From: an uncultured bacterium
GTDB lineage: Bacteria > Omnitrophota > Omnitrophia > Omnitrophales > Abzuiibacteriaceae
Direction of reading: 5' to 3'
Length of the DNA: 64,000 bases
Assembly: GCA_964387845.1 (NCBI GenBank)
Contig: CAYLXA010000003.1
Location: 32,001 to 96,000 of the forward strand
The translations under genes were made by a program, and so were the position numbers. The notes under the pieces are model-generated. The model was not told the origin of the DNA. It searched no databases and saw only the letters and a list, made by a program, of their open reading frames with translations. This document shows, piece after piece, positions 7,983 through 48,700 of the stretch; positions within the stretch are counted from its first letter, which is position 1, and each line of letters begins with the position of its first letter.

Positions 7983-8013
7983 GGATTAATTTTGATGAGC
8001 TCGGGCCGAAAAC

Positions 8014-8793
8014 TTAAGAAATCAATACGGCCCGGTCACTTTCTTGAATTCTTGCCCGTAAATCTTCGCTGATGATTGAGATTGCCGAAATTTTATCCTG
8101 GACACGCTCCACGCTGCCAACCCCTAACAATACATCTTGCCGGTAAAGTTCGACAAGGCCGCCCGGCTTAACACCGTTTAGAGAACCAAAATTAGCAATC
8201 ACAAATCCGTATTCGCGGTCCACCGATATAACCTGTCCGGCTGCGATTTCCGCGCGAGCATCTGGTTTGTTCACGGATTCAACCGAAAAAATTGACGGAA
8301 TGGCGGACCCGGAGCCGGTATTTTGAGCCGATGATCCTTGGAGCGCAGAAACAGCCGTTGGGTCTCCGAGTGCTGCCCGGATAGGTTCTAGTGATTTGGT
8401 CAGCAGCATATTGAAATCGGCATATTGTTTTATTTCACTTTCAAGCTCTTCAATCCGCTTTTCATAATTTTTCTGGAGTTCGGCGATTTCATCTACTTTT
8501 CTTTTTACATCGGCTTCTGCTATTTCCTGATTTTTCTTGGCTTCGGCGGTTTCTTGAGTTAATGTTTCAACTTTTTTCTGGTAACTTTCAAGCTCTGCTT
8601 TTGATTTTTGAAGTTCAGCCGCTGCTTTTAACTTTTCCTCCTCCAAAAATCCAATCCGAACCGACATTTGATCTCTAGATTTGACAGCTTCCGTCGAACT
8701 CCAGTAGAAATAACCGGCTGCACAGGCAACTAAAACAAGGACAACAATGAGGACAACATTTGTGGGATTTCGCTTCTCAAGAGTGATCGCCAT
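8014..8793 (-). CDS. Coiled-coil bitopic membrane protein, function unknown (possibly pilus-associated)
   Basis: 259 aa; TM VVLIVVLVLVACAAGYFYW; long E/K-rich coiled coil; C-terminal beta-rich domain. Confidence 0.4.
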   Translation of the reverse strand: MAITLEKRNPTNVVLIVVLVLVACAAGYFYWSSTEAVKSRDQMSVRIGFLEEEKLKAAAELQKSKAELESYQKKVETLTQETAEAKKNQEIAEADVKRKVDEIAELQKNYEKRIEELESEIKQYADFNMLLTKSLEPIRAALGDPTAVSALQGSSAQNTGSGSAIPSIFSVESVNKPDARAEIAAGQVISVDREYGFVIANFGSLNGVKPGGLVELYRQDVLLGVGSVERVQDKISAISIISEDLRARIQESDRAVLIS

Positions 8794-21822: not shown

Positions 21823-23583
21823 TCAAAATGCCTTCTGGACTTTAAAGTCTTTTTCTTCGAGCGCACGTATTTTAAGCAGATCCGGTATCTTGAAATGGTC
21901 CGGTACGTTATTTATCATAGACTCTATTCTGGGTAAATAAAATTCGGCGGGCTCTAAAATGGTTACATTGTCTTTTTTCTTATATATTTTCTTAATGTTC
22001 CTGATAACAACTAATTTTTCTTCCTGGCTCAACAATTTCCACCATGCAACCGTTCCAATCTTAAAATCTTTTCGGATATAAATGCGATTATCGCCCAATT
22101 CGATATCGATTGTATAATTTTCATCAATTTCCCGATTGACCAGGTTTTGAGCATTTTCGTTCAGATATACGATACCCTTTTTGGGCATCAAAATAAGGGC
22201 GGGCTTCTTCTCAAAAATTTCTCTTACCATGCCTTCTTGAGTGACTTTTTTTCCTTCAAAAGCGCTAATAAACGCTTCTTTTTCAAGGTTTGATGGGTGT
22301 GCTTGTTTAGTGGGAATCAAAGAATCTGTAAACCAATAAAGAATATGATGAGTAGCAAAGAAAACATAACGACCTGATAAATTGTACGTCTTCTCCAAAT
22401 ACTGATTCAAAACATTAACGCGGTCCGGCCTGTCCAATTGTTCGTACTTAATTCTCAATGGATACAACGTCCATAAAAAACTAGAAGCAACCATAAGTGC
22501 AATAATCCATTTCCATCTACCTAAACTAAAACCGTAAGCAATCAATAAACCGGCTGTGATAGACAGCATGGGTAATAGCGGAATTAAATAATGGCCATAT
22601 CCCCATCCCGTTGTGAGTATGGAAAGCAGCATTGAAATAAAAAATATTAAAAAAATTCGGGTGGTTTTTCTCTGCTCGTCATTAAAAACTTGGCTTAAAC
22701 ATCCCAGCAAAAACCCGGCCAGCGAAGCAAGCCAGATAAAAAAACGGTGCGAAACAATCGACATTTTAAATAAATCTATCGTCCGCTCAACTCTTCCCAT
22801 GCTGATTCCCAGAAATGATTTCTCGCTCTGTGCTTCAATGTAAACTAAACAAGCATCAATCATTGTTCTTTTCAGCGTATCGAATTCATGATTTGCAAAA
22901 TAAACAGCCGAGACTGCAAAAATAGGAAATAGATACCCAAGAAAAAACGACAGGCTGTCAGAAAGCGCTCTTTTTTTATCCTGACGAAAATGCCTTAGTA
23001 AAACAACCAGAAATGCTACGAGTACAAAATAAACGATATTGTGCCGAACCAAAGTTGCGATCGATAAAAAAACACCGGCCCAAAATACATGGCTTTTCTT
23101 TTTCCCGGTTATTAAAAACCACAAAAAAAGGCTGATTGGGACCGACGCGATGTGTTCACCCATGGTGGATTGACCGGAATGAAACGTGCTGGAATAAATA
23201 ATATGGATAACACCCGCCCAAAATCCCGCTAAGCGCCCATAAATTCTTTTTCCAAGGAGATAGATAATAAATGCGGTTGACAAGATACACAAAAGGCCCA
23301 AAACGCGTATCGCAATGATGCTTTTCCCGAATAAAAGGATGGTCAGCGCAAATGGCAGGTATAAAAGAGGCGGATAGCCACACCAATAATTCGTGAGCGG
23401 CAGATAACCGTTCACCACATCTTGGGCTATTAGAATGCTTGTGCTTTCATCCCAATCAATTTCATATGGAAAAAAATCCGGTAAACGGATGAGAAGAGCA
23501 AGGCAAAGAAAGAAAATGAGGGCCCAGAATTTATTGTCGATTAAGCGGTCAAATTTGTCTAACTTGACGCTAGGCGCTTGCAT
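21823..23583 (-). CDS. GT-C fold glycosyltransferase (ArnT/PMT, GT39/GT83-like)
   Basis: 586 aa; about 11-13 TM helices plus C-terminal soluble domain; follows ArnC-like GT2 in operon. Confidence 0.55.
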   Translation of the reverse strand: MQAPSVKLDKFDRLIDNKFWALIFFLCLALLIRLPDFFPYEIDWDESTSILIAQDVVNGYLPLTNYWCGYPPLLYLPFALTILLFGKSIIAIRVLGLLCILSTAFIIYLLGKRIYGRLAGFWAGVIHIIYSSTFHSGQSTMGEHIASVPISLFLWFLITGKKKSHVFWAGVFLSIATLVRHNIVYFVLVAFLVVLLRHFRQDKKRALSDSLSFFLGYLFPIFAVSAVYFANHEFDTLKRTMIDACLVYIEAQSEKSFLGISMGRVERTIDLFKMSIVSHRFFIWLASLAGFLLGCLSQVFNDEQRKTTRIFLIFFISMLLSILTTGWGYGHYLIPLLPMLSITAGLLIAYGFSLGRWKWIIALMVASSFLWTLYPLRIKYEQLDRPDRVNVLNQYLEKTYNLSGRYVFFATHHILYWFTDSLIPTKQAHPSNLEKEAFISAFEGKKVTQEGMVREIFEKKPALILMPKKGIVYLNENAQNLVNREIDENYTIDIELGDNRIYIRKDFKIGTVAWWKLLSQEEKLVVIRNIKKIYKKKDNVTILEPAEFYLPRIESMINNVPDHFKIPDLLKIRALEEKDFKVQKAF

Positions 23584-23601
23584 TATCGGATGATTATTGA
23601 A

Positions 23602-24138
23602 CTAACTATTTGTAATTTTTCCACGCTTAGGATTGAGCAGTTCGTTGATATCCAGCATCATTTCTTCTCGGCTGTAGGCGGCAATATCCAAAATTTGTGT
23701 ATCCATCCTGATCGCATCTTCGGGGCATGCTTCCACGCAAAACCCGCAATAAACGCATTTTCCGAGATCGATGTCGAAACTTGAGGGGCGCTTTTCAATA
23801 TTGGGATCGGGATGCTCTTCGGCAACAATATAAATACAGCGTGCCGGACACACGGTTTCACACATCATGCAAGCTACGCAGCGCGGGCTTCCGTCGTCGC
23901 GCTTGGTCAAGCGGTGGCGCGTCCGTGAGCGGTGAGCAAGCGGCGTTTGCTGATCGGGATACTGAACCGTTACAGAAGCCGGAATATTTCTGAATAATCC
24001 GAAAAGATGAAGAATGTGAAGCGTAAAATTCTTTAAGAAATGGCGCGTCGTAATCCAAAGCCCAAAAAAAATCGCGGGCAGATAAATCCGCTGCCAAAAT
24101 GTCATTTTTGGTTGATGAATGACTTTTGTTTTAATCAT
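23602..24138 (-). CDS. nuoI: NADH-quinone oxidoreductase subunit I
   Basis: Two 4Fe-4S ferredoxin motifs CVACMMCETVCP and CVYCGFCVEACP. Confidence 0.9.
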   Translation of the reverse strand: MIKTKVIHQPKMTFWQRIYLPAIFFGLWITTRHFLKNFTLHILHLFGLFRNIPASVTVQYPDQQTPLAHRSRTRHRLTKRDDGSPRCVACMMCETVCPARCIYIVAEEHPDPNIEKRPSSFDIDLGKCVYCGFCVEACPEDAIRMDTQILDIAAYSREEMMLDINELLNPKRGKITNS

Positions 24139-25250: not shown

Positions 25251-26827
25251 TCGGCGTGCTTTTTAGCATCCAGCACCTTCCACACACCGCTCATTTTGCT
25301 ATTCATCTCTTCAAAAACACTCTTTTCGTTCGCATACTGCCATTCAAAGCCAAATTTTCCGGCCAAAATAGAGAGAATTTCCAAATCCTTTCTCGCATTT
25401 CCGATTGGTGTAAGCGCTTGTGAAAAGTGCTGCGTTTTTCCCTCAAAATTTGTGAAAGTTCCGCTCAATTCCGCATAAGCAGCGCTCGGCAGCACATAAT
25501 CACAAGCTTCAGAGGTTAAGCTGGTGTTCATCCCATGAAAAATGGTGAGTTCGATTTTCTCAAAAATCTCGGAAATCTTGGGGTCTTTCACGAGCGTCAG
25601 AAAATCCTGGCCGAATAAGTAAAGTGCTTTGAGCTTTCCCTGCTTCGCAAGCTCAACCACTTTCTCGATTTTCGCACCTGATTCTTTAAAGCCCAGAAGT
25701 TCGGCGCCTTTTCGGTTTGGATTTTTATCGGCGCGAATCAGAAAATCGTCTTCGTAGCCTTCTTTGTTTGGCGATAACAAATAAACATGAGGAAGTTTTA
25801 ATTCTTCGGAAAACAATTTTTTCGCCAAATATAACGATTCGTTCGAAAGTTGAGGCGACAATAGAACCGCTGCAGCACGCGGATCTTCTTTTACGGCATC
25901 AATCCACTTTGTTGAAACTTCAACCAAAGCATCATCCCAATCCAAAACTTCGGGTACTTTGTTGATCCTGCGCGACGGCTCCAAAATACGGTCTTGATCG
26001 ATCCACTTGTAACCATAGCGGCCTTCATCACAAATCCACCACTGGTTGATTTCCGGGTTGTAGCGCGGCTTCAGGCGCATGAGACGTTCGCCGTGTCCGT
26101 GATGTTTGCGTTCGGTGTTGACTTCCATCGAAATCGAACAGCCGCGTGAACAGCCGCTGCAAATTGAATTGGCTTTTCTCAAATACCAAACCCGCACTTT
26201 AAACCTGAAATCGCGGTCTGTGAGCGCGCCGACCGGACAAATGTCCACAACATTTCCCGAATACTTGTTATCAAGCTCTTTTCCCGGATAAAGGCCGATT
26301 TCCGCATGATCACCGCGGTTAAAGATTCCAAAGTCGTTTGTTTTCGTAATCTCATCCGAATAACGCACGCAGCGCGAACACAAAATACAGCGTTCGGAAT
26401 CTAACATCACGTTGGGCCCGATCGGAACCGCTTTTTTCTTTTTTACCTTTGATTCGTTCAGCTTCGAATCATAAAGCCCATGCTTCATGTAATAATCTTG
26501 AAGCCCGCACTCACCCGCCTGATCGCACACGGGACAATCCAAAGGATGATTAACAAGCAGAAATTCTAACACGTGCTCGCGCATGAGCTTGACTTTCTCG
26601 GTGCTGGTTTTCACCACCATGCCGTCTGTGCATTCAATGTGGCAGGAAATTTGAAGTTTCGGGGTTTTCTCGATTTCAACTAAACACATGCGGCAATTGC
26701 CCGCAATGCTCAAACCAGGATGATAGCAATAATGAGGGATGTCGATGCCAAGCTGCTTGGCGGCCTGGATGACGCGCGTTCCCTTTTCGACTGTGACTTC
26801 TTTTCCGTCAATGGTTAATGTTGGCAT
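25226..26827 (-). CDS. nuoG: NADH-quinone oxidoreductase subunit G (short form)
   Basis: 533 aa; N-terminal 2Fe-2S (CYHPGLSIAGNCRMC), 4Fe-4S clusters (CDQAGECGLQD, CILCSRCVRY); shorter than typical NuoG. Confidence 0.85.
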   Translation of the reverse strand: MPTLTIDGKEVTVEKGTRVIQAAKQLGIDIPHYCYHPGLSIAGNCRMCLVEIEKTPKLQISCHIECTDGMVVKTSTEKVKLMREHVLEFLLVNHPLDCPVCDQAGECGLQDYYMKHGLYDSKLNESKVKKKKAVPIGPNVMLDSERCILCSRCVRYSDEITKTNDFGIFNRGDHAEIGLYPGKELDNKYSGNVVDICPVGALTDRDFRFKVRVWYLRKANSICSGCSRGCSISMEVNTERKHHGHGERLMRLKPRYNPEINQWWICDEGRYGYKWIDQDRILEPSRRINKVPEVLDWDDALVEVSTKWIDAVKEDPRAAAVLLSPQLSNESLYLAKKLFSEELKLPHVYLLSPNKEGYEDDFLIRADKNPNRKGAELLGFKESGAKIEKVVELAKQGKLKALYLFGQDFLTLVKDPKISEIFEKIELTIFHGMNTSLTSEACDYVLPSAAYAELSGTFTNFEGKTQHFSQALTPIGNARKDLEILSILAGKFGFEWQYANEKSVFEEMNSKMSGVWKVLDAKKHAECETTMCL

Positions 26828-28118
26828 ATTCGGACTTTTCTAAATCGCATTTTTTTTCTTTGATATGGTACTCAAATTCCGAACGAAATTTTTTCAAATA
26901 ACTCAAAAGCGGCATTTGAGCGCCGTCTGCAAGCGCGCAGATCGTCGTGCCGCCCATAAAACTCCCGATATCGATCACATTCTCAACATCTGAAGACCGC
27001 CCGTTCCCGTCTAGCACGCGTTTGAAAATCCTGGAAATCCATCCTGTCCCTTCGCGGCACGGTGAACACTGGCCGCAAGATTCGTGCGCGTAAAAATTCA
27101 TAGTGACCGAAAGTGCTTTGACCATGCAGACCGTTTCATCAAACACAACCACGCCGCCTGAGCCGCCCATGGAACCGATTGCTCTCAGAGAATCAAAATC
27201 CATTTTCACGTCAATTTCAGATGGCGCAAGAATTGAAGCGGACAATCCGCCTGGCACAACGGCCTTCAGTTTGTGGCCTTTGCGGACACCGCCGGCATCT
27301 TCAATCAGCTGCCGGAGCGGAATTCCGAGCGGGCGCTCGTAAACACCCGGACGCTCAACGTGGCCGCTCACGCTAAAAAGACGCATGCCGCCGTTCTTAT
27401 CGGAGCCGACATTCGCGAACCACTCGGGGCCTTTTTTCAAAATGAACGGCAAATAAGAAAGTGTTTCGACGTTATTAATTACGGTCGGACAATTAAAAAG
27501 CCCGATCACGGCAGGAAAAGGCGGTTTTAAACGCGGCAATCCTTTTTTTCCTTCCAAAGATTCTAAAAGCCCCGTTTCTTCGCCGCAAATGTAGGCGCCG
27601 GCGCCTCGGTGAACCACTACGTCCAAATCAAACCCGGTTCCAAAAATATTTTTCCCGAGGTAATTTTTAGAAACCGCTTCTTCAACTGCTTTCACCATTC
27701 GTTCATATGAAATTTGATATTCACCGCGGATATAAATGTAAGCTTTGTGAATACCGACCGCATATGCGCAAAGCAAAATTCCTTCAAGCAAAAGATGCGG
27801 CGCAAAATTCATAATATATTTATCTTTGAATGTGCCCGGCTCGCCTTCATCGGCGTTGACCACCAAATAAATCGGCTTTCCGGTATTGCGCGGCACAAAA
27901 CTCCATTTCATGCCGCAGCCAAAACCGGCGCCGCCGAGCCCGCGAAGGTTTGATTTTTTCACGATTGCTTCGACTTCCTCCGGCTTTACTTCTTTCAACA
28001 CACGTTTCGCCGTTTCCCAGCCGCCGTTTTCAAGATAAACCGGCAGTGTGTGAGAATTTTGTATGTCGAAGAACTTTGAAATTAATTTTTCCATTATTGC
28101 CTTAAATTCAAATCTCAA
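26808..28118 (-). CDS. nuoF: NADH-quinone oxidoreductase subunit F
   Basis: 436 aa; FMN/NADH-binding motifs (GLRGLGGAGFGCGMKW, GAGAYICGEETGLLESLEGK), 4Fe-4S CGQCSPCREG. Confidence 0.9.
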   Translation of the reverse strand: MRFEFKAIMEKLISKFFDIQNSHTLPVYLENGGWETAKRVLKEVKPEEVEAIVKKSNLRGLGGAGFGCGMKWSFVPRNTGKPIYLVVNADEGEPGTFKDKYIMNFAPHLLLEGILLCAYAVGIHKAYIYIRGEYQISYERMVKAVEEAVSKNYLGKNIFGTGFDLDVVVHRGAGAYICGEETGLLESLEGKKGLPRLKPPFPAVIGLFNCPTVINNVETLSYLPFILKKGPEWFANVGSDKNGGMRLFSVSGHVERPGVYERPLGIPLRQLIEDAGGVRKGHKLKAVVPGGLSASILAPSEIDVKMDFDSLRAIGSMGGSGGVVVFDETVCMVKALSVTMNFYAHESCGQCSPCREGTGWISRIFKRVLDGNGRSSDVENVIDIGSFMGGTTICALADGAQMPLLSYLKKFRSEFEYHIKEKKCDLEKSEYANINH

Positions 28119-28170
28119 ATTTCAAATATCAAAACGAGTTTTTGAATTTTGATATTTTAATTTTGAATTT
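28105..28170. repeat. AT-rich palindromic repeat, family B copy 1 (tcaaatatcaaaac...ttttgatattt)
   Basis: Inverted repeat in 50-nt nuoF/nuoE spacer; same motif recurs at 61939..61996 and 63277..63358. Confidence 0.7.
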
Positions 28171-28648
28171 ACTTACATTCTCTCAATATTTCATCTACTT
28201 TCTCAACTGTGAGCGGGCCAACATAATCTTTATTCACCATCATCATCGGCGCAATTTCGCAAGCACCGAGACATTCAACCGTCTCGAGCCCGAATTTTCC
28301 GTCCGGCGTTTGCTGGCCAACGTCAACACCGAGCCGTTCTTTCAAATAATGAACAATTTTGTCGGAACCCAGAAGCGAACATGTAAGCGTTCGGCAAACA
28401 CTAAGCTGATTTTTTGCACAAGGCTTTGAATGAAACAGGGTGTAAAACGTCATCACTTCCCTGACATCGACAACGGGAACTTCCAAAAGCACGGCAACTT
28501 CCTGCTCTGCCGCCTGCGAGATAAATCCGTAAGTTTCCTGAACGAGCCGCAAAACGGGCAGCATCGCCGCGCGTTTTTGCGGATAATTCGCAAGAATTTT
28601 TTCAGCTTTCTTTTTGAGTTCAGAGTTTAGTATTTCATTTTGTATCAT
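28169..28648 (-). CDS. nuoE: NADH-quinone oxidoreductase subunit E
   Basis: 159 aa; 2Fe-2S thioredoxin-like Cys pattern (CAKNQLSVCRTLTC...CLGACEIAP). Confidence 0.9.
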   Translation of the reverse strand: MIQNEILNSELKKKAEKILANYPQKRAAMLPVLRLVQETYGFISQAAEQEVAVLLEVPVVDVREVMTFYTLFHSKPCAKNQLSVCRTLTCSLLGSDKIVHYLKERLGVDVGQQTPDGKFGLETVECLGACEIAPMMMVNKDYVGPLTVEKVDEILRECK

Positions 28649-28663
28649 CGCGATATATCCATT

Positions 28664-28738
28664 GCTGCAAGCTACAGGCTACAAGCTTCAAGCTTAATCA
28701 ATTGAAGCCTGAAGCTTGTGGCTTGCGGCCTGAAGCTG
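28664..28738. repeat. GC-richer palindromic repeat, family A full copy (gctacaagcttcaagc - loop - gaagcctgaagcttg)
   Basis: About 75-nt hairpin in nuoE/nuoD spacer; its two arms match the half-elements at 807..848 and 1218..1262. Confidence 0.75.
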
Positions 28739-28739
28739 T

Positions 28740-30074
28740 TTATCGATCAAGCTCTCCGCCGATCATATTGACCGACCCAAATGTGACAATAATGTCCGAC
28801 ACAAGGCCGCCGTTGATCATCAAAGGAAGCGCCGCCATAATCGGAAAGCACGGCGGGCGCACACGCACGCGATAAGGCCTTCCCGTTCCGTCTGAAATCA
28901 CGTAAAACCCGAGTTCGCCGTTGCCGCCCTCGACAGCTTGATAAACTTCACCCTTCGGCGGCCGGATTCCGTGCCCGTCCATAATCAATTTAAAATGCTG
29001 CATCAAACCTTCGATATTGCCGTAGGTGTCTTCTTTCGCGGGAAGTGCGGCGCGTTTCTCCTCGGTCAGAATTTCAGGATAGTAAAGTTTGGTGCTTCCT
29101 TCTAGCGTGGGATCCAAATCCACATACTGTTCCTGAATATTGTAAAGCCGGCCCATTTTGGCATCATCAACCATTGCCGATGCCGGCACTTCGCGCCCTT
29201 CCATATCCACCAACACAGAGCCTCCGGGAATTTTCGAGAATGCCTGCTCGACAATCCGCATGCTTTGCTCAATTTCCTCCATCCGGACCAAATAGCGGTC
29301 GTAATTGTCGCCGACCGTACCGACCGGCACTTCAAAATCAAATTGGTCATAGACCAAATAGGGACAATCCTTCCGGACATCAAAATCTACGCCTGTGGAA
29401 CGCAAAAACGGGCCCGTGATTCCGTAAGCAATCGCATTTTTTTTGGAAATAATGCCGGTTCCTTTCAAGCGATCGACAAAAATCCGGTTCGTAGTTAGGA
29501 GCCCGTGACATTCCTTTAAAACTTTCCGGGTTTCTTCTATGGCCTTGCAAACCGCCGGTTCAAATTCAGGCGGCATATCGGCTTTCACGCCGCCCGGACG
29601 CACGTAAGAAATGGTGAGCCGCGCGCCGGTGATCATTTCGATGGTTTTCCAAACCATCTCACGCGCTTTCACCATGTACAAAAACACTGTGAAAGCCCCG
29701 ATTTCCATCGCACTCGCGCCGACGCAGGTTAAATGATCGCAAACGCGGGAAAGTTCTGAGGTGATGACACGGATAAATTGCGCACGCTCGGGAACTTTAA
29801 GGTCGAACAATTTTTCAATGGCCATGCAATAGCCGGCGTTATTGATTAATGGTGATACATAATTCAGGCGGTCCGTGTAAGGAATCACCTGTAAATAACC
29901 GCTCTGCTCCGAAGATTTTTCGAAAGCTCTGTGAAGATAGCCGATCTCGACTTCGGAGCTCACGACCTTTTCGCCGTCAAGCTCCAAAAGAAGCCGCACG
30001 ATTCCGTGCATCGCCGGATGCGACGGACCCATATTCAGCATCATGGTTTCGGATTTAGTTTGCTTGGTGGTCAA
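28740..30074 (-). CDS. nuoD: NADH-quinone oxidoreductase subunit D
   Basis: 444 aa; NMGPSHPAMHGIVRL start typical of 49-kDa subunit; C-terminal RVRVRPPCF. Confidence 0.9.
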   Translation of the reverse strand: MTTKQTKSETMMLNMGPSHPAMHGIVRLLLELDGEKVVSSEVEIGYLHRAFEKSSEQSGYLQVIPYTDRLNYVSPLINNAGYCMAIEKLFDLKVPERAQFIRVITSELSRVCDHLTCVGASAMEIGAFTVFLYMVKAREMVWKTIEMITGARLTISYVRPGGVKADMPPEFEPAVCKAIEETRKVLKECHGLLTTNRIFVDRLKGTGIISKKNAIAYGITGPFLRSTGVDFDVRKDCPYLVYDQFDFEVPVGTVGDNYDRYLVRMEEIEQSMRIVEQAFSKIPGGSVLVDMEGREVPASAMVDDAKMGRLYNIQEQYVDLDPTLEGSTKLYYPEILTEEKRAALPAKEDTYGNIEGLMQHFKLIMDGHGIRPPKGEVYQAVEGGNGELGFYVISDGTGRPYRVRVRPPCFPIMAALPLMINGGLVSDIIVTFGSVNMIGGELDR

Positions 30075-31964: not shown

Positions 31965-32048
31965 AGTCAGCGTACAGCGGACAGCGTATAGCGTTCAGGA
32001 TCAGGTTCGATTAACTTTACCTGACCGCTGAGCGCTGCACGCTGAACG

Positions 32049-32699
32049 CTAATATCCCATTCTTTGATGCAAAAAGTTTTGTAAATTGCCTGCCTGTAAA
32101 TACGGATTGTGTTTCCGCTCCTGATCAATCGTCGACGATGTCGCTTCATCCGAATAATTGTGGCCGGGAAATAAAATCGTACTGCCGTCCAGTTCCGACA
32201 AACGTTTCAAGCTGTGATACATTTCCTCCGCGTTTCCGCCCGGAAGATCGCAGCGGCCGCAAGCATTGATAAAAAGTGTGTCGCCCGAAATTAACCGGTT
32301 TTGAACCAAGAAACATTGCGAGCCCGGCGTGTGCCCAGGCGTATGAAGCAGCGTGATTTCCACATCGCCGACGTTAATTTTATCGCCGCCCTCAACTTTC
32401 TTCAAATTGCCGCTCATGCCTTTTAAATAGGGCGCTTCGGATTTGTGAATATACGCAACGCCGTCTGTGGCATTCAGAAGTTCTTCCAAACCATTCACAT
32501 GGTCAAAATGCGCATGCGTAATAAGAGCGCCTTTGATTTTAAGGTCTTCTTTTTTGGCCTCTTTTAAGATGGTATCCACCTGCCAGGCGGGATCAACCAC
32601 AAAAACTTCGCGCATGTTTGGGTCACCCACAAAGTAGACGAAGTTTTGCATGGGCCCGACTTCCATTTGCTTCAAGTAAAGGGTTCCGGAGATTGCCAT
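32049..32699 (-). CDS. MBL-fold metallo-hydrolase
   Basis: 216 aa; HAHFDH metal-binding motif. Confidence 0.8.
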   Translation of the reverse strand: MAISGTLYLKQMEVGPMQNFVYFVGDPNMREVFVVDPAWQVDTILKEAKKEDLKIKGALITHAHFDHVNGLEELLNATDGVAYIHKSEAPYLKGMSGNLKKVEGGDKINVGDVEITLLHTPGHTPGSQCFLVQNRLISGDTLFINACGRCDLPGGNAEEMYHSLKRLSELDGSTILFPGHNYSDEATSSTIDQERKHNPYLQAGNLQNFLHQRMGY

Positions 32700-32798
32700 A
32701 GCAGAACATCATAATATGTGAAGGATTTACGGTCAATAAGGCGGCAAATGGGCAGAAAAAAACCGCCCCGTTTAAGCTAAAAACAGGGCGGTTTTTTG

Positions 32799-33824: not shown

Positions 33825-33887
33825 CTTAAAAGAACTATCGGCAAAAGAAGAAAAGGAGTTAAGAAAGGGATTTCGAGAAGAAATAAA

Positions 33888-33925
33888 AAAGGCAGCTTAT
33901 TGAAAGCTGCCTTTTTTATTGTTAC
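33888..33925. terminator. Bidirectional rho-independent terminator (aaaaaaggcagctt-attg-aaagctgcctttttt)
   Basis: GC stem flanked by A-tract and T-tract seen directly in sequence. Confidence 0.7.
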
Positions 33926-35551: not shown

Positions 35552-37111
35552 TTAAAGTGTCCTAGCGTACTCATTCCGCTTGAGTTTCCAAACGGGGACG
35601 CCGCAGAAGCGGTCGCCTTCGGGGCAAAAGGGCTTAGTGCCGCCGCGCTCGCGAAGGCCGCAAGGCGGAAGAATGAATTGGGTGATGCGGGGATGGATTT
35701 TGGCGACTTCCTCGACTTCGTCCAAACACATGCGCCAAATTTCTTCCTGTGCTGTGTAACAAAGCCGCGTCGTCCATTTGTGGTGAAGGTTCAAAAGATC
35801 GCCCGATTCTTCGAAGCGAATCGGAAACGCGTTCGGCAGCAAATACATCGCAAATTCGGGCTTCACACCTTGCCCGAGCAAAATATTAATGTTCTGCCAA
35901 ATAACGGACATTGTTTTTACGTATAAATCGTTTGCTTCGGCGCATTCGGCAATTAATGGCGGCGTGATAAAATCAGGAATCTCGGCTTGGAAATGCGAAA
36001 ATAAAATCGGCCGCGAGCCGGGCGTCATGCGGTGGCGCTGGTCTTGAGAGTCAGCCGTATGTGAGAGTTTTTTCATGAATGTGTAATGCGGATGCGAAAG
36101 TGTGCGCGTGAGTTTCGATAAGGAAGACAAATTCAAAGCTTCTTTAAAATACGTATTTTTCTGCGGATCCAAAACCGCCAAAATCGCGTCCGAATCGCTC
36201 AAATCCCGCTTCGTTAAACCCAAAATGCTGCGGACCGACTGTGCCAGCACCGCTTCGGAATTTACTTTATAATCCACAAGTTTCGATGTTTTATTCCCGA
36301 GCCGTTCGTCAAATTCCTTCACAAACGCGTTTTCGGGAACTTCCGTGATGCTCCGCTCGTAAACGGAAAACATTTTGTATTCCGGCGTTTCCGTGAGAGG
36401 AATCGGGTCTTCGATATTTTTAAAGAAAAGCGGATCGATTTCGTTCACAGCATCGATCATTTTTCCGACGACGAGATTTTGTTCGTATGGCGTATCGAAA
36501 ACGTTCTTTAATTTATTGTAACGGTGCAAAGTCAAGCCGCTAATCGTGTGATACAAATGCGCATAAGTCGCGATCGGCAGAATGTAGCGCGCAACTTCCT
36601 GCACTTTTTTCTTGATGGGGCCTTTCCATTTTTCGGGATCTTTCGAACGCACCGGAAAGATTTTAAAATAGTGTTTCTCCGTATCCTTCCACAAAATTTC
36701 AATCAACTTGTGATACACATCCATCTGTAAATTGGCTGTTGCGTGATACGTCTCAAGCAAATGTTCCGGAAGAGGCGGCGTAAAATAAGTGCCGGGCTTT
36801 ACGGCCACATAGCGCTGGCTCACCTGTTCGGAATTATAGAAAGTGTGATTGTGAAGAAAGCTCCAGATAAACTGGCGTGAGATTTTCTCGAGCGTAAATT
36901 GAAATGTGGAGTGCTGAATCGTTGTGTGGTGACCGGCTTGATAAATGGATTCGGCGATTTTGTCGCGCAGAGCAACCGCTTTATCGTCTTTGTCGACTTC
37001 TTCCGTGGAAATCACGCGCGAAGAATAGCAAGTCCGCGCCGTTGCGACCGCGTTATTGAACGGCTCTTTGAAGGAATTGATAAGGGTTACGACAGGCTGT
37101 TCTGAATTCAT
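35552..37111 (-). CDS. Long-form ThyX-like (FAD-dependent thymidylate synthase family) protein, tandem pseudo-dimer
   Basis: 519 aa; N-half has ThyX-like block GHHTTIQHSTFQFTLEKISRQFIWSFLHNHTFYNSEQVSQRYV (HNH where RHR is expected), C-half has RHRMTPGS. Confidence 0.5.
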   Translation of the reverse strand: MNSEQPVVTLINSFKEPFNNAVATARTCYSSRVISTEEVDKDDKAVALRDKIAESIYQAGHHTTIQHSTFQFTLEKISRQFIWSFLHNHTFYNSEQVSQRYVAVKPGTYFTPPLPEHLLETYHATANLQMDVYHKLIEILWKDTEKHYFKIFPVRSKDPEKWKGPIKKKVQEVARYILPIATYAHLYHTISGLTLHRYNKLKNVFDTPYEQNLVVGKMIDAVNEIDPLFFKNIEDPIPLTETPEYKMFSVYERSITEVPENAFVKEFDERLGNKTSKLVDYKVNSEAVLAQSVRSILGLTKRDLSDSDAILAVLDPQKNTYFKEALNLSSLSKLTRTLSHPHYTFMKKLSHTADSQDQRHRMTPGSRPILFSHFQAEIPDFITPPLIAECAEANDLYVKTMSVIWQNINILLGQGVKPEFAMYLLPNAFPIRFEESGDLLNLHHKWTTRLCYTAQEEIWRMCLDEVEEVAKIHPRITQFILPPCGLRERGGTKPFCPEGDRFCGVPVWKLKRNEYARTL

Positions 37112-37127
37112 TGGACGCGTATTATAT

Positions 37128-37262
37128 CAGTATCTGGTATCTCGTATCTAGTATCTAGTCCACCGCACCTCCTCACCCTATCCCTCTCCCCCTCTAAGGG
37201 GGAGAGGGTAAAGGAGAGGGGGTTTGTAAAACGAGATACTAGATACCAGATACTAAATACGG
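37128..37262. repeat. Long imperfect palindrome (family D) with polypurine/polypyrimidine core
   Basis: agtatctggtatctcgtatctagtatctagt ... ccctctccccctctaagggggagagggtaaaggagaggggg ... cgagatactagataccagatactaaatac. Confidence 0.7.
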
Positions 37263-37265
37263 AAG

Positions 37266-39660: not shown

Positions 39661-40788
39661 ATGAGCGAACAAAAGCAGGCGATTTTGATTATCGATGACA
39701 GCGAACGCAATGCAGACATGTATTACGCCACGAAATTTATTGCGCCGGATCCTTTCATCTTCATTCAAATCGACGGAAAAAAGACTTTGCTCGCAAGCGA
39801 CCTAGAGCTTGACCGTGCAAAAGATCAATCAATTGCCGATGAAGTGCTTTCCACTTCTGAAATCGCAAAAACCCTGAAAGCAAAAGGTATTGCGCCGAAC
39901 AGCATTGAAATCACCGATTGGGTTTTGAAAAACCGCGGGATTCAGAATATTTTGGTTCCGGCCAGCTTCCCCGTTCAATATGCCGACGCGCTCCGTAAAA
40001 AAAGTTACACGCTTGAATGGAAACGCGATCCTTTTTTTGATGCGCGCGTGATTAAAACAAAAGACGAGATCAAGGCCATCACACAAGCGCTGCGCCATAC
40101 CGAAAATGCGATTCACGCGGCTGTTGAAGTCCTCAAAAAATCCAAAATCAGCGGAAAATATTTGATGTACAAAGGCAAAAAACTGACTTCGGAAGATATT
40201 AAAAAAGTCATTAACGTCAAATTAATGGAAGCGGGCTGCATCGCGGCTCATACAATTATTTCCTGCTTCAATGATTGCGTCGACCCGCACAATCAAGGCT
40301 CGGGGCCTTTATTAGCCAATCAATCGATCATCATGGACGTGTTTCCGCATTCATCCGAAACACGCTATTTCGCGGATATCACACGGACATTCGTGCGCGG
40401 GAAAGCGTCTGATAAATTAAAGCAGATTTATAAGACGGTGAAAGAAGGCCAAGAGATCGCATTCCGCCAAGTGCGAAACGGCGCGGACGGCTCCAAAATT
40501 CATTCCGACATTATGAAATATTTTGAAAGTTTGGGATTCAAAACCGGTGTTCAAGACGGCCGCATGCAGGGATTTTTCCACGGAACGGGCCACGGCGTCG
40601 GAATCGAAATTCACGAGCCGCCGCGGATTTCCGTATCAAAAGACATTCTCAAAACCAACCAAGTCGTGACAGTCGAACCCGGGCTTTATTATTGGAATAC
40701 GGGCGGTGTCCGGCTGGAAGATATGGTTGTCGTTGATGAGAATGGATGTACGAACCTCACCAAATTTCCCAAACAACTTGAAATCTAG
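39661..40788 (+). CDS. M24-family Xaa-Pro aminopeptidase/dipeptidase
   Basis: 375 aa; metal ligands in HGTGHGVGIEIHEPP and VTVEPGLY. Confidence 0.85.
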   Translation: MSEQKQAILIIDDSERNADMYYATKFIAPDPFIFIQIDGKKTLLASDLELDRAKDQSIADEVLSTSEIAKTLKAKGIAPNSIEITDWVLKNRGIQNILVPASFPVQYADALRKKSYTLEWKRDPFFDARVIKTKDEIKAITQALRHTENAIHAAVEVLKKSKISGKYLMYKGKKLTSEDIKKVINVKLMEAGCIAAHTIISCFNDCVDPHNQGSGPLLANQSIIMDVFPHSSETRYFADITRTFVRGKASDKLKQIYKTVKEGQEIAFRQVRNGADGSKIHSDIMKYFESLGFKTGVQDGRMQGFFHGTGHGVGIEIHEPPRISVSKDILKTNQVVTVEPGLYYWNTGGVRLEDMVVVDENGCTNLTKFPKQLEI

Positions 40789-40859
40789 TGATAAGTTGTA
40801 AGTGGTAAGTGCTAAGTTGTTCGATTTTCACTTTCTTAACACTTACAACTTATCACTTA
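40787..40859. repeat. Palindromic repeat, family C copy 1 (agtgataagttgtaagtg ... cacttacaacttatcact)
   Basis: Perfect 18-nt arms; between convergent genes, likely bidirectional terminator. Confidence 0.7.
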
Positions 40860-40867
40860 AAACTGAA

Positions 40868-42668: not shown

Positions 42669-42727
42669 TAGTGGTAAGTGATAAGTTGGTCGATTAACTT
42701 ATCACTTATGACTTAGCACTTACCACT
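42669..42727. repeat. Palindromic repeat, family C copy 2 (agtggtaagtgataagtt ... aacttatcacttatgacttagcacttaccact)
   Basis: Shares ggtaagtg/gataagtt words with copy 1; immediately downstream of giant ORF stop. Confidence 0.65.
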
Positions 42728-42731
42728 GAAA

Positions 42732-45700
42732 TTACGCCGCTTTTCCAAGTACGGCGCGGCTAAAGAGCGTATGCATGAGTGAGCTGATAAATTCCGAGCT
42801 CGGATCGATCACGTCGCCCAACGAACGGAAATTGAACGAATCATTATGAGCGATTAGAAGCTGCGCAGCCTCAACGGCTCCCGGTCGGCCCAAAACTTTT
42901 GGAATATCACGCCGCGTGAGTTTTGAGAATAAATCGTGCTCGCCAATGGCCACAATCCGAGTCGTATCGCCTTTTGCATTGAGTTCATGTTTTAAGCGGT
43001 CGATTAAAATATTGTACGCTTGATCCGCCGAAAGTTCGCGGCCGACACTCAAACGCTCGCGCGTATAAAGCTGCAAGCGCGATCTTTGCCCGCTTTGCTT
43101 GCCAAAAATGTCGGCGTTTGGAAATAACTCTTCAACAGCCCTTTCGGCAACAAATGTGTTATCAAATTCGGAAGCGACAACCGAAAATTCGATTTTTGAA
43201 CCGGGATTTGCACTCATATCCGCCAAAATCGCTTCGCGCAATTCCGAACGGTTCTTCAATTCCTCAAACGAGATTACAATATTCCCCTTCACGTTTGACG
43301 GAATGCTTGCTTGATTCGCTTCACGCCTCAATTCAGACCGGGATTCTTGAGTTTCACCAAAAACCGCCTTAAGTCGATCCAAATATTGTGTCCGGTAAGC
43401 GCCCTCCGGAAAGTCTTCCAACTCGTCGGGATGGCTGCGGGCGGCGTCTGCTTCCTGTTCGACCTCATCGCCAACCCGTTCATCCTCTAAATATTCTTTG
43501 ATCACCTTCGTGGCCGCTTCAAGCTGTGCTTGGGTAATTCCCAATCGTTTAGGTGCTTCCAAATAAATTGCGATCGGTGTTTCATATATTGTGAAAAGCG
43601 TGGTGGCGGTTATCCGGCTTGAAAAATGATTCGCCGGATTATTTTCTTCACCAATCCAATAACGGACACCTGCCTCGATCAAAGGCAGTGTCAAGCCGAG
43701 CAATATTCGGCTTGGGCCTTCATGCAAGCCGGCAGCGTGATTTAAAACTGCGTGTTCAAGATGAAAAGAACTGTTGTCCAAACGGCTTTCAAAATGATCT
43801 TTAAATTCATTCCGGATATGCTCGATCAATGCCTCATCGCTTGTGCGCAATTCAGAGCGGGATTCGTCCTTTCGTACAAGAGCGCTCTTCCAGCCTCTTG
43901 ATTTTTGGCCGTCAGCGCCAACCGCCATCAGCATGTTGCCAAGTTCGTACGTTTGTAAATTGGTCCTGCCAAATACAGCATTTGTTAAAATTTTTACTTG
44001 CACACTTTTATCTTCGATTTCTGAAATTACTTTTAAGATTGGATTAGCATTGGTTAAAGCATCTTTAATGATCCACCTCGCTAAATATTTTGGAAACTTT
44101 AAGAAAAATTCTTCTTGTTCCAGAAAAGTCAAATCAGAAAATTTTTCATCCAAAATTCTGATCAATTCATCCGTTGTTTTGACCTCGCCAAATCTTGGCC
44201 AAGCCGGGAAGTTTTCCTGAATAAATTCTTGTATTTTTAAAACTCTTTGTGCATCGTTAGAAAATTTTTGTCCTTTTGTTGCTTCTGAGATTAACTGATT
44301 TGTCAGAAGGCGTGGATTTTCTATTTGATATAAATTCGAAATTTGAATTCTTTCATCTTTGGATAATTCCGATATTTTCTGCCGAAGACGGCGTTCTAAA
44401 TCCATATCTTTTTCAGGATCAATAAAGGGCAATTCGTAGAATGAGGCGTCTGCTAAATCAGGATGATGACGGGTTAAATAAGTCAGTAAAATATCTTGGA
44501 TGCTTCTGTTTTCCAAAGGTACGTTGCCATCGCCAAATTCCCGCACTAAGAGTTCTTTTTTATTTGAATCACCAGATATTAATAATCTATTCGAGGCATC
44601 AATAAAAACTTCCGGAATAATTCCGGGGAATGCGAGAACAATCTCTCGTCCTTGCCGGAAACTATTCGGCTGAAATTTTTCCTGTGCCCAATCCGGAATA
44701 TCAGTTCTTCCCCAAAGTCCGCCTGCTTCACCCATAAAATCCCGTTTTAATTCTCTTTCTAAAGACTCAAATGAAACACCAGCGCGCAAAAGCCAGCTTA
44801 ATTTGGTCCGCGCTTTCGAGAAAGTCATGTGATAAGGAATATTAATGGCGCCTGATTGCGAAACATTTGAAACAACAGGGATTTTCTTCCTTTTCAAACT
44901 TTGAATAGTAGCCCTGATATATTCGATCTCGGGGTTCTTTGAAAAATCGCCCTGGATAACAAGTCCTGCCCGAACGCCGGCTTGCTCTGCGTGCCGCTCG
45001 ATTCGATTGCCGGCTTGAAAGAGCACCAGCGCAGGCGTTGTTTCATCTATAAGCAAATGCTCAACATAACCAAATTCTTCATTTTTATGAAACTTTGGTT
45101 GTTTTTCTAGATTGGCCAATTTGCTGCTTACTGTTTGTAAGAAATCCATATCGAAACTGATATTTCCCTTGGAATCAACGGCGCCGATTGCTTTTCCATA
45201 ACTAGCAAAAAGACTCCCTTTTGAAGACGAGTCCGTTCTGATCTTCGAAATAAGACTTCCGAGATAGATTTGACTGTCAATGACAACATAGACCAAATTT
45301 GGAATATCTGTACGTTTTGCAACTTCTTCAGCTGCTTTCAAATTTAATATCTTTTCCTTTTCATTAACCGTGGAAGATCCTGTTAAAACAATTCGTGTCG
45401 GTAATGATCCATCAAATTCAAGCGAAAGAACCAGGCCTGTTTCTGCCAAGGTGTCGGTTCCGTGCGTGAGGATAATTCCACCCATTTCTCTTTGAGAAAC
45501 CTTGATCTCTTCGGCTAATGTCGTCTTCCTCGAGATTTCATCTTTGATATGATCAATTATTTTTTCCCATTCTTTCGGGCCAATATTCGTACTATCCGGA
45601 TTTTTATCGAAAACACTTTTGTAAAAAACAGTATTCTTTAAATGCGTTAATAAAACTCTTACCGCATCAACAGTCTTCCGCGCAAATTCGCCGATCATAT

Positions 45701-48700
45701 CAATCGTTCCGCCGGCATTTAAGATTGAAACGCCGGACAATTCTTTCTGAAGTTCTGCAATACTTTGCCCGCTGCGCAATTCGGATCTCACGTTTTCTTC
45801 AACCGGCTCTTCGGCATTCGGCTCATCGAGCTGTTTCAAGACGCGGTTTGTGGTAGCAATCGAATCTTCAAAAACGCCCAGCTCTTCCTTCGCTTTTTTC
45901 AATTCTAATAATTCCCTTGCCTGATCTTCAGGAAGTTCGACAATCCGGTCTTTGATTTCCAAAATCTTTTCAAGTCTGTCCGGACTAACGCCCAGCGCTT
46001 TCCTTAAAAATGCGGAATCTTTTAAATAATCAAAGAGCTTTTCGACCGCTTTGGCCATATCAAAAGGAGGAAGGATTTTGATGTATTGATCAATGTCGGG
46101 TGTTTTGTTTTCCCATGCATCTTTCAAGATCGTCACATTCTGGACTATTTTTTTCTTCGTTCCCTTTCCTCCCTTCACCGGAGCATCCACAATCTTGGGT
46201 GCCAATTCGATGCCGGTTAAACGAGCTATTTCCGGCATCCTGGATTCTTTGTTATAAAGCTCTTTTCTAACCCGGTAAGGCAGCCGCATAACCAGATCTG
46301 CATGAATACGAGCTCTTAATAGTGCTTTATACTCAGGGCTTCCGAATTCAATCGGTTTTTCGGGTTCAGGCTCTTGCGTGACAGAGGAATTTTCGAATGA
46401 ATCGACTAATGGGGTTTTTCCTATGATCGCCCGGGGTATCTCCAAACGCCTATTCGTTACCGCTGCCTGGCGAGCGTTTTTAGGTAAAAATTTATCGGCG
46501 AAATGCGGCGGATACGGATCCGCATTAAGTTCTAGAACCGTTTCGCGCCTAATCCCATAAATTAAATCTGAAGTCACATTCAATATTCTCGCCAACTTGC
46601 CCACTAATCTAGTAACTTCGGTGAATTTGACTTGTTTACTCCCGGAAAGCACTGCGTGAACATGCCCATAGGTTTCTTGTATTTGATTAAAAAGCTCGCT
46701 GGTAGTGATATGAGTAATGCCTCTTGCTTCAACAATGATTCTAATTCTGTCCCAATATGTCAAACTTGGATCAAACAAAGATTCGATAATGGCTGGCGTA
46801 AGAGCATAAATCGTCCATTGATCAACCGGAGATGCTCTTTCAATTTCCGAGACAAATGGTGGTTGCTGTTCTGGTTGGGGCGCTTCGGAAGCAGTTTCTG
46901 GAGTACTATCAATGTTTTTTAGCATTTCCGACAATCTAAGCGGCAACATTTCTTCTGCAGTTTCTTCTATCGTACCCGTCAGGGGTTGTTCTTCTGTTTC
47001 TGAGGGTTTAGCTTCAGTCAAAACTTCTTGTTTTACCAACTCAAGTTCTTGCTCGGTAGTCAAACCCAATCGTATGGAAAACTGTTCAAAGAGCATGATT
47101 TCTGGCCCTAAGATCCTTCTGATTTCTTTACCCTCTTCGCTTTCAGGAGTGTGGAGCAATTGTGCAAACTCCAAAGTATCTACTAACACTTCCCGGCTGG
47201 CAATACGCGGCCCCCCAAATGCGGGGTTGGTCGGCGGTACAAACAATAAACCTCGGTCAATCATATGCTGCAATGCTTCACCCATACGGGCTCCGCCGAT
47301 CGTGGTACCGAGCCGCGGATGCCAAACGACGTCCTGCGATTGGCCTTCCGATTTCGTATAAATTTCTTCCCAAAGAATCAATGCAATCAAGAGAGGCGCC
47401 ATTATCCTGCCTTTGTTCGGCCCGCTTTTGTATTTGAAAAGAACGTCGGGATCCTTCAGTAAAGTATCGGGAAGCAGATATTCTTTCACTGAAAATTTCA
47501 AATATTCTTTCAATGCGGCTTGATCCACGGAAAGATTTTCAAACGGTTGGTCTGGATTTCTGTTTAAGATTGCTTCTTCAATTTTTTTGCGAACCTCCGC
47601 ACCCATTTCATGATCAACTTCGAGCTGATTTTTGCTGTTAAACAATGATTCAAAATCCAACCCCACATGATTCGTGTATTCAGACATAGCTTCTACTTGC
47701 CATGGCTCTAGCTTTTCTGAAAGCCATTCGTGCACTTGCCCTACTCGAATGGTAACGTCCCGGTATTTTTCATCAGAATAAATTTGGTCAACTAATTTGC
47801 TAATTTCTTGAGGGTCTTCTTCTTTGATTGTCTTGAAAAATAAGTTTTCAAGATCGGCATCTCCCGTCAAATGATGAAGCAGCATATACCGAAGAATTGT
47901 TTTTTGCGTATTGCCTGCAAACCGCATTCCTCTCACAGTATCTGAATCCCTCATCTTAGTAATCGCTTTCATGGAGGAGCGCCGGATATTACCATGCATG
48001 CGCTCGACTGCCTGGCGATTAAGTCCGAAAATCAAATAAAGATCGATGATCATAAGCTGGGTTTCAACTGGAAGAGCTCCGCTTTGCTCGAAGCTTCTCT
48101 CAACAGCTTTATCAATCAATCCAATTTGACCTTCAATCAACAAATGTGTACGCCGGCTCGAATCCATCATCGATTTCAAAAGCTTCAATCGGTGGCCTTC
48201 GGCTAACGCTAAATCACGAAATTCGATCTGAAGCGTTGTGCTGCGATTCATTTCTATCTGGCGTGAAAAAACTTTGTCCAGTTTTTCAAACGCTTTTTCC
48301 AAGTCTATCTTTGCCTGGCCGATCAACTCTTCCGCAAGCTCCGGTTCGACTTGATCCACCAAGTGATCGGCTTGGTTTAGTTTTGCTTTTGCCTGGCCTA
48401 AATAATATTTAAACCATTGCTTATAAACTTGGGTTGAAATGTCTTCATAGATAGAACGTAAACGCCAATAAGCTTCTCCCCATTTGCTGGATGTTTGGCT
48501 CTCTTTAAATGAATCATCGTCCAAGAATGTTTTTACGGTTACGGCAACCTTCATCATGGTTTCGTAAAATAAATTAATTCTTGCTTGTTGAATGGAAATA
48601 TCCGATGCGCCGGATAGTGACTTGAAGTCTTTGTGCAAACGCCCGTAAACAGGAGATGTTCTGCTTTCAAAAAATATAGACTCTTTATTTTTAATATCCA

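Follow-up and report, generated by a model that had tools for sequence, protein, structure and literature searches.

Heptamer-armed hairpins at nuo gene junctions of an Omnitrophota bacterium: probable ORF-less copies of a dispersed, intervening-sequence-like element

The nuo operon and its two hairpins

We analyzed a stretch of 64,000 nucleotides (hereinafter the window) from an uncultured Omnitrophota bacterium of the family Abzuiibacteriaceae (assembly GCA_964387845.1, contig CAYLXA010000003.1, positions 32,001 to 96,000 of the forward strand), which codes for a nuoA-I operon of respiratory complex I with a palindromic hairpin at each of two gene junctions. We present evidence that these hairpins belong to a class of dispersed elements with arms made of tandem heptamers, and that they are probably versions lacking an open reading frame (ORF) of an element resembling the intervening sequences (IVSs) of 23S rRNA. 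The operon lies on the minus strand and all nine of its genes are assigned by Pfam. The features of the region in question are, in window coordinates:

26808-28094, minus strand: nuoF (Pfam Complex1_51K), starting at the conserved ATG at 28094
28103-28171, minus strand: nuoE/nuoF hairpin, family B, AT-rich, with arms of AAAT[ACT]T[CT]-type heptamers
28169-28648, minus strand: nuoE (Pfam 2Fe-2S_thioredx)
28664-28736, minus strand: nuoD/nuoE hairpin, family A, with arms of A[AG]GC[TC]NC heptamers and the mRNA-strand centre CAATTGATTAA
28740-30074, minus strand: nuoD (Pfam Complex1_49kDa)

The remaining genes are tightly packed, with overlaps at five pairs (A/B, C/D, F/G, G/H and H/I) and a gap of 21 nt between nuoB and nuoC, so that an earlier interpretation made from the letters of the DNA (the sequence-only reading) was essentially right in describing them as overlapping or abutting. 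The nuoD/nuoE (28649-28739, 91 nt) and nuoE/nuoF (28095-28168, 74 nt) spacers are both nearly taken up by an inverted repeat. The sequence-only reading had placed a palindrome in each and had the correct length for the former; it gave 50 nt for the latter because it took the first in-frame TTG (28118), which falls within the nuoE/nuoF hairpin, as the start of nuoF, the start ATGGAAAAATTAATTTC at 28094 being the one common to relatives. The arms of the nuoD/nuoE repeat (28664-28695 and 28705-28736) are 32 nt long and 78% complementary, and on the mRNA strand the hairpin folds with a minimum free energy (MFE) of -41.3 kcal/mol (z = -4.9) that none of 200 shuffled sequences equals. The nuoE/nuoF repeat has core arms (28115-28134 and 28147-28166) that are 90% complementary within an entire stem spanning 28103-28171, and on the mRNA strand it reaches an MFE of -16.9 kcal/mol (z = -3.4), which 1 of 200 shuffled sequences equals. 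Judged by their arms, folding energies and shuffle tests, both nuo hairpins are genuine and not a product of chance.

The nuoE/nuoF insert also supplies the end of nuoE, namely its final two codons and stop (TGT AAG TAA), with the TAA sitting in the outer stem of the hairpin. The insertion point lies after GAATG, and the NuoE C-terminus reads ...RECK as compared to ...AE in the relative L018 (see below). Both hairpins leave the ribosome-binding/start region of the downstream gene unpaired and outside the stem; at both junctions the ancestral stop/start coupling of 0-2 nt is lost. The nuo cluster ends with nuoI, the next gene coding for a PMT_2-type glycosyltransferase (21823-24138), and nuoJ-N are not adjacent.

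A class of heptamer-armed palindromes across the window

Tandem Repeats Finder assigns a period of 7 to the arms of both nuo hairpins and likewise to about a dozen other sites in the window. A lag test recovers 15 arrays at lag 7, as compared to 0-1 at every other lag between 4 and 12 and none in 20 Markov shuffles, and these arrays pair up into 11 elements. Each arm consists of 3-5 degenerate heptamer copies in which a core is fixed and 2-3 positions are free (e.g., A[AG]GC[TC]NC at nuoD/nuoE, CAGCGNN at 31968 and AAAT[ACT]T[CT] at nuoE/nuoF), and the mismatches between the two arms are located at the free positions. The arms have the tandem 7-nt units with conserved core and variable positions that define heptameric simple sequence repeats (SSRs) of the short tandemly repeated repetitive (STRR) type, and the elements, as convergent arrays with an intergenic bias that can form stem-loops, also display the makeup of heptameric inverted arrays. 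The elements other than the nuo hairpins are:

806-1260, minus strand: loaded family A element, with inverted arms (806-848 and 1214-1260) around a PF05635 gene (828-1214)
31968-32050, unstranded: empty hairpin with CAGCGNN arms and the centre TCGATTAAC, between genes for metallo-β-lactamase (MBL)-fold and tetratricopeptide repeat (TPR) proteins upstream of nuoA
37125-37263, unstranded: hairpin with TATCTAG arms that contains a nested GC-rich hairpin, CCCTCTCCCCCTC..GGGGGAGAGGG
40787-40864, unstranded: hairpin with AGTGNTA arms, between convergent genes
42670-42727, unstranded: hairpin with AGTGNTA arms and the centre TCGATTAAC, right after the stop codon of a giant gene
58018-58070, minus strand: hairpin with TAAGCGT arms, in frame within an ORF of 5503 codons
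58983-59050, minus strand: hairpin with AGGGTCA arms, in frame within the same ORF
61941-61998, unstranded: family B hairpin, between convergent genes
63275-63357, unstranded: family B hairpin, between co-directional genes

The two families of palindromes that the sequence-only reading had recognized as recurring do so: the 28664 hairpin and the 806/1214 arms make up family A, while the family B members at 28103, 61941 and 63275 share an invariant 18-nt block, TTTTGAATTTTGATATTT. The AGTGNTA-armed hairpins at 40787 and 42670 form a further pair. Additionally, a centre motif (TCGATTAAC / CAATTGATTAA), which is a decayed TTAATCGATTAA-type palindrome, is common to hairpins with unrelated arms, both in the window (28694, 32007 and 42690) and in the relatives L008 (~3593) and L019 (~268). 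Its TYGATTAA form is not enriched across the window (17 matches versus 10.8 ± 3.5 expected), and 3 of these 17 matches fall in hairpin centres, which constitute roughly 0.3% of the window sequence. The elements start 0-5 nt from the upstream stop codon and are present in 10 of the 26 spacers of at least 35 nt (seven co-directional and three convergent), with none in the five divergent promoter spacers.

Some further observations concern individual copies and their surroundings. The GC-rich hairpin nested at the centre of the TATCTAG hairpin (CCCTCTCCCCCTC TAA GGGGGAGAGGG with extended arms, 37163-37225) has the look of a second family of repeats lodged in the first. The gene at 61994-63274, which codes for a 426-aa protein without a Pfam family, has a complete family B hairpin on either side. 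The ThyX (Thy1) ORF at 35552-37111 codes for 519 aa with two Thy1 stretches, roughly twice the usual size.

Insertion history of the nuo junctions

We compared orthologous nuo loci junction by junction, with the distance of each relative being given by the identity of its NuoE to that of the window:

L018 (93%): nuoC/D not covered; nuoD/E with the family A hairpin as in the window, in a 91-nt spacer; nuoE/F 2 nt (TGAaaATG)
L028 (86%): nuoC/D not covered; nuoD/E with an unrelated pair of GC-rich hairpins; nuoE/F genes abut
L029/L030 (81%): nuoC/D not covered; nuoD/E 5 nt; nuoE/F 2 nt
L008 (80%): nuoC/D with a different, empty heptamer hairpin; nuoD/E overlap (TAATG); nuoE/F 2 nt
L019/L020 (78%): nuoC/D with a PF05635 gene within heptamer arms (L019 and L021); nuoD/E overlap (TAATG); nuoE/F 2 nt
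L031 (68%): nuoC/D 35 nt; nuoD/E 14 nt; nuoE/F 2 nt

The nuoE/nuoF hairpin is missing in L018, L008, L019, L028, L029 and L031, and the family A hairpin of nuoD/nuoE in L008, L019, L029 and L031. Hence, orthologous operons lacking the inserts, with which the sequence-only reading had suggested a comparison, do exist (L008, L019/L020, L029 and L031). In L018 the nuoD/nuoE hairpin is identical to that of the window at 70 of 73 positions. The gap between the MBL and TPR genes is just 1 nt in L031, and two further relatives at 83% identity (P0130 and P0133) have spacers of 77-109 nt as judged from gene coordinates alone. No heptamer arrays are seen in the distant NuoE relatives L001-L005 and L009-L012.

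As the relatives combine short junctions with differing elements, the operon was ancestrally compact, with its junctions being colonised repeatedly and independently. By the same comparison, the two nuo hairpins are insertions into this compact operon, the nuoD/nuoE copy predating the split from L018 and the nuoE/nuoF copy being younger.

Two relatives display further junction elements. At nuoD/nuoE, L028 has two GC-rich hairpins (positions 246-329; GGGCGACC..GGTCGCCC and GGGCTGGC..GTCAGCCC), and its called NuoE ORF reads through to give 180 aa. Another hairpin family, TGTCATCCCCGC … GCGGGGATGACA, occupies the nuoA/B (2302-2440) and nuoB/C (2944-3004) spacers of L008; at these junctions the genes of the window merely overlap by 4 nt and lie 21 nt apart, respectively. 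Logan contigs of the same organism as the window break off within the nuo hairpins: the end of L006 lies 63 nt past the nuoE stop, and L007 begins 35 nt before the nuoE start. Such breaks of short-read assemblies within the hairpins are as expected of repeats. Many PF05635 homologues are likewise found on contigs of only 0.5-1.3 kb, which suggests that heptamer repeats routinely fragment assemblies.

Association with PF05635 genes

PF05635 is the family of the 23S-rRNA intervening-sequence protein (S23p or 23S_rRNA_IVP), an Avd-like four-helix bundle. The gene at 828-1214 codes for a 128-aa member (E = 1.8e-27), whose best relative in the PDB is XCC0516 of Xanthomonas (2GSC), and lies downstream of a gene for a PilB-like ATPase of type II secretion systems/type IV pili (T2SS/T4P). 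The family A arms around it are 365 nt apart; its ATG is 4 nt past one arm and its final codons are formed by the other. The element at 806-1260 is laid out as an rRNA IVS in an mRNA context.

This arrangement recurs in other Omnitrophota, where PF05635 genes with inverted heptamer arrays (L013 at 5001; L014 at 212, 5001 and 6518; L019 at 2236) are located between ordinary operon genes. Their arms include families that are empty in the window, namely AAGCTNC, CAGCGNN and GTTAACG/TAAGCGT. For instance, the CAGCGNN family is represented by the empty hairpin at 31968 in the window and brackets a PF05635 gene at the nuoC/nuoD junction of L019 and L021.

Beyond the Omnitrophota, a tblastn search of a plasmid collection recovered PF05635 in 21 records, 20 of which are cyanobacterial. 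The flanks of all six cyanobacterial plasmids examined carry arrays, with both arms being present in five: Calothrix and Nostoc punctiforme share (GGGTGTA)n…(TACACCC)n, Anabaena sp. 90 has (GGTGACA)n…(TGTCACC)n, Stanieria has (GGCAGAA)…(TTCTGCC), Nostoc C052 has a variant with an 8-nt unit and Nostoc 7120 has the 3′ arm only. For a quantitative comparison, 14 PF05635 genes, drawn from Omnitrophota and from plasmids of cyanobacteria, were scored for flank complementarity alongside 49 other genes of the window as controls: 11 of the former reach a score of at least 12 as against three of the latter (Mann-Whitney p = 5e-7).

The relationship between loaded and empty elements admits both loss of the ORF from the element and capture of an ORF by a hairpin. 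Specific routes that we entertained were abandoned: loop alignments give no significant similarity that would mark the empty hairpins as loaded elements reduced by deletion, and GATTAA as a remnant of the 3′ end of the PF05635 gene was dropped after the same alignments. An apparent decay of the PF05635 ORF between L019 and L021 (95 versus 116 aa) proved to be a gene-calling difference at identical loci.

Two contexts of the family may be noted in passing. On the Anabaena sp. 90 plasmid pANA02 (L024), a four-helix-bundle gene lies between cas6 and cas4, with a 270-nt (GGTGACA/GGGAACA)n array ahead of it and (TGTCACC)n behind it. In L015 (5001-8036; also in L016 and L017), a diversity-generating retroelement (bAvd, a Lcl_C fragment and RVT_1) has as its neighbour a PF05635 gene with a heptamer arm. 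This retroelement is surrounded by more heptamer arrays and a hairpin (7974-8036; GACAGAA/TTCTGAC), and a TCATTGCGA…TCGCAATGA hairpin is nested within one heptamer stem.

Copies within a giant open reading frame

The minus-strand ORF at 42732-59243 codes for 5503 aa with an N-terminal signal-like segment, and its first 614 residues have no match in Pfam. In an alignment with six homologues (22-28% identity), the peptides encoded by the hairpins at 58018-58070 and 58983-59050 are insertions absent in all six. One of the hairpin-encoded peptides, GQVASSKGQGTNLDPGPMTLAP, directly precedes the conserved IQDxHA motif and the other, LSDKSDLTPNAYPLPPGS, directly precedes VTGGFH. These in-frame copies are hard to reconcile with an origin of the element as a regulatory device.

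Origin and role of the nuo hairpins

We posit, with a probability of roughly 60%, that the nuo hairpins are ORF-less copies of a dispersed, heptamer-armed, IVS-like element of this Omnitrophota lineage. In the nuo transcript each is predicted to give an imperfect duplex ~25-30 bp in length. As neither stem has a U-tract behind it on the mRNA strand, transcription presumably reads through. By analogy to IVS stems and repetitive extragenic palindromes (REPs), the duplexes would most likely be cut by RNase III and/or pause 3′-exonucleases, and such cleavage or pausing would break the nuoD-nuoE-nuoF translational coupling and the continuity of the transcript. The presence of the hairpins would then reflect the element's own spread and its tolerance at gene junctions, with co-option by the host being at most secondary.

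Several observations weigh against this proposal. Among the ~50 ORFs of the window, Pfam detects no transposase, REP-associated tyrosine transposase (RAYT; Y1, PF01797), insertion sequence (IS) or reverse transcriptase that might move the element, and none of 13 elements displays a target-site duplication (TSD) or a common target. Comparison of nine empty-hairpin loops with six loaded interiors, with shuffle controls, yields no similarity that is significant after multiple testing. The nuoE/nuoF stem is AT-rich, weak at -16.9 kcal/mol and broken by internal loops. The nuoD/nuoE hairpin is more conserved than synonymous sites, which is unexpected of a purely selfish, decaying insert. As candidate RNase III or exonuclease-barrier sites, their most likely role, the nuo stems are identified by analogy alone, and the sample comprises 64 kb of one genome and a handful of relatives.

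The conservation of the nuoD/nuoE copy is one argument for the hairpins being mRNA processing or stability determinants selected by the host, which would protect upstream cistrons or create cleavage sites and result in unequal amounts of the Nuo subunits. Its 70 of 73 identical positions in the comparison with L018 exceed the 159 of 200 flanking third codon positions (Fisher p = 6.5e-4). However, the 3′ end of nuoD likewise shows reduced divergence at third positions (84% versus 73%), raising a recombination tract as an alternative. The formation of the stems in the transcript, without a U-tract, and their placement right after stop codons with the downstream start region unpaired would suit such a role, as would the retention of pairing between the hairpin at the MBL/TPR junction (31968) and its orthologue in L019, where both arms have changed together from CAGCG/CGCTG to TAGCG/CGCTA. 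However, concerted changes of this kind are equally explained by arm-templated repair of quasi-palindromes without selection, and the three changes by which the stem in L018 departs from that in the window are not compensatory. Moreover, junction occupancy varies, with five relatives being empty at nuoD/nuoE and nuoE/nuoF, one having an unrelated element and others being occupied at nuoC/nuoD, and elements of the same class are found between convergent genes as well as in frame within an ORF. Neither folding energy nor G:U pairing shows a bias towards the mRNA strand, with 8 of the 11 copies folding slightly better in antisense. We hence regard a host-selected role as unlikely, and the differential subunit stoichiometry envisaged in the sequence-only reading is not supported by conservation across the relatives. 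That the hairpins act as intrinsic terminators or attenuators dividing the operon into separate transcription units is scarcely credible: although they are strong stem-loops right after stop codons, they lack the U-tract that, with a GC-rich stem, makes an intrinsic terminator, a terminator scan does not call them and promoter-like sites follow them only at chance level. The actual terminators of the window are conventional, with a GC stem and a T-run (32757-32797 and 33882-33920).

As to how the elements came to be where they are, the sequence-only reading, which regarded them as REP- or MITE-like inserted repeats, was right in seeing dispersed palindromic families inserted in a compact operon; the labels themselves do not hold. 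Mobilization of REPs or REPINs by a RAYT, or of MITEs (miniature inverted-repeat transposable elements) by an IS transposase elsewhere in the genome, would account for dispersed, extragenic palindromes lying 3′ of genes and shunning divergent promoter spacers, as well as for assemblies breaking within them. Nevertheless, we consider it highly improbable. The GT[AG]G-type tetranucleotide of REPs is not common to all the families: some family A units contain GTAG, which in the nuoD/nuoE copy occurs only within two variable units and not at a fixed end, and the nuoE/nuoF, other family B and CAGCGNN copies have neither GTAG nor CTAC. The sequences are also far more varied than those of REP families, and the associated gene is PF05635 rather than a transposase. 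The arms do act as long inverted repeats, but of the features that would accompany the terminal inverted repeats of a MITE, no TSD was found at 13 elements and no parent IS in the 64-kb window, which has no RAYT either. The AATG/TAAG repeats at the nuoE/nuoF junction were considered as a TSD and rejected, being partly present already at the empty site of L018.

It is also improbable, if somewhat less so, that the arrays are immobile and grew in place by replication slippage of heptamers in the manner of STRR-like SSRs, with palindromy following incidentally from self-complementary units, for example AAGCTT+C. Many of the units do consist of a 6-nt palindrome and one extra base (AAGCTT+C, AAATTT+C and GTTAAC+G), their composition shifts in concert between orthologues, and heptamer copy number differs among strains of Coxiella (PMC4990558). 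Against this, the nuoE/nuoF element is a single block of ~78 nt at a junction that measures 2 nt in six relatives and offers no seed. Furthermore, the family B copies share identical blocks of 18-19 nt, which go beyond unit periodicity, and the shared centre motif TCGATTAAC / CAATTGATTAA recurs in hairpins whose arms are unrelated. Insertion of a dispersed IVS-like element, as proposed above, remains our preferred explanation for these features.

Implications

Long inserts that form duplexes, and even a foreign gene, are accommodated at several junctions of the complex I operon, which is normally tightly coupled. As the inserts are gained and lost between close relatives, they offer a natural experiment in how operons are built and their RNA is processed. 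On a wider view, three puzzles hitherto addressed one by one, namely the nature of bacterial heptamer repeats, the origin of rRNA IVSs and the function of the very common PF05635 genes, may be facets of one element. The cross-phylum association of PF05635 is the most interesting lead in this regard: it is based on the 11 of 14 genes found here and two published gammaproteobacterial cases (Coxiella and Xanthomonas). We tentatively raise the possibility, which we hold to be rather doubtful as a whole, that heptamer-armed stems with or without a PF05635 gene form one ancient and widespread family that includes 23S IVSs, cyanobacterial STRRs and the arrays of Xanthomonas and Nostoc, and that in Omnitrophota colonises operon junctions and even, in frame, ORFs, with the PF05635 protein (a homologue of Avd, a cofactor of reverse transcriptase) aiding either its spread or the processing of its stems. 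No paper joining heptamer repeats with the PF05635 family was found in the one literature library searched, which is no proof of novelty, and the terms "S23" and "four helix" have no occurrences in the cited papers on heptamers.

Comparison with known systems

The IVSs of 23S rRNA, some of which carry an S23p ORF (e.g., in Coxiella burnetii and Leptospira), resemble the elements described here in having a long stem formed by terminal repeats and a loop that is either empty or occupied by a PF05635/S23p gene. The 23S IVS of Salmonella is of the ORF-less form. In Coxiella, RNase III cuts a 28-bp terminal stem whose loop holds the S23p ORF, and 2-3 tandem GACAGAT heptamers, variable between strains, extend from the 5′ cleavage site onward (PMC4990558). 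The window copy at 806-1260 has exactly this layout and, like the nuoC/nuoD element of L019/L021, an S23p ORF in its loop, which the nuo hairpins lack. The elements differ from the IVSs in occupying mRNA spacers and the interior of a protein-coding gene rather than helices 9, 25 or 45 of 23S rRNA; an Rfam scan of the entire window at gathering thresholds returned no match, and no rRNA is present. They further differ in that both arms are wholly heptamer arrays and in being present in many copies per genome with several sequence families; RNase III processing is demonstrated for Coxiella, whereas the elements here are known from their sequence.

Heptamer repeats are known from several other bacteria, with GGGAATC-type repeats in Xanthomonas and Nostoc (PMC4692102) and TAACTGA in Beggiatoaceae (PMC4679880). 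Genomes of Xanthomonas have 70-75 pairs of convergent GGGAATC arrays that can form stem-loops (Rehm et al. 2015, PMC4692102), and one GGGAATC array overlaps the start codon of XCC0516, next to accB (PMC4692102 supplement). These repeats share with the Omnitrophota elements the 7-nt unit with conserved and free positions and an over-representation in intergenic regions. The same is true of the STRR heptamers of the cyanobacteria Calothrix and Nostoc, reportedly described by Mazel and colleagues in 1990. The phylum and the units differ from those of all these repeats, the Omnitrophota units not being G-rich, such that G-quadruplexes are no issue. The bracketing of PF05635 genes by inverted arrays seen here is a link not made in the cited papers.

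REPs, bacterial interspersed mosaic elements (BIMEs) and REPINs of Enterobacteria and Pseudomonas are comparable as extragenic palindromes after stop codons in operons, and REPs can stabilise the mRNA upstream of them, as in malE-malF of E. coli, the kind of function that the sequence-only reading had in view. The elements here differ in lacking the conserved tetranucleotide recognized by RAYTs and a nearby RAYT, and in having arms of tandem heptamers that vary widely in sequence.

Finally, the Rickettsia palindromic elements (RPEs), which according to Ogata and colleagues in 2000 are said to insert in frame and add a peptide without destroying the protein, find a parallel in the copies at 58018 and 58983 of the 5503-aa ORF, likewise in-frame palindromes with an apparently tolerated peptide; the nuo copies are intergenic. 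RPEs are not known to have heptamer periodicity or an associated PF05635 gene, and they are presumably unrelated in sequence. On the whole, the element of this Omnitrophota lineage is best described as a variant that combines features of heptameric inverted arrays, rRNA IVSs and RPE-like in-frame palindromes.

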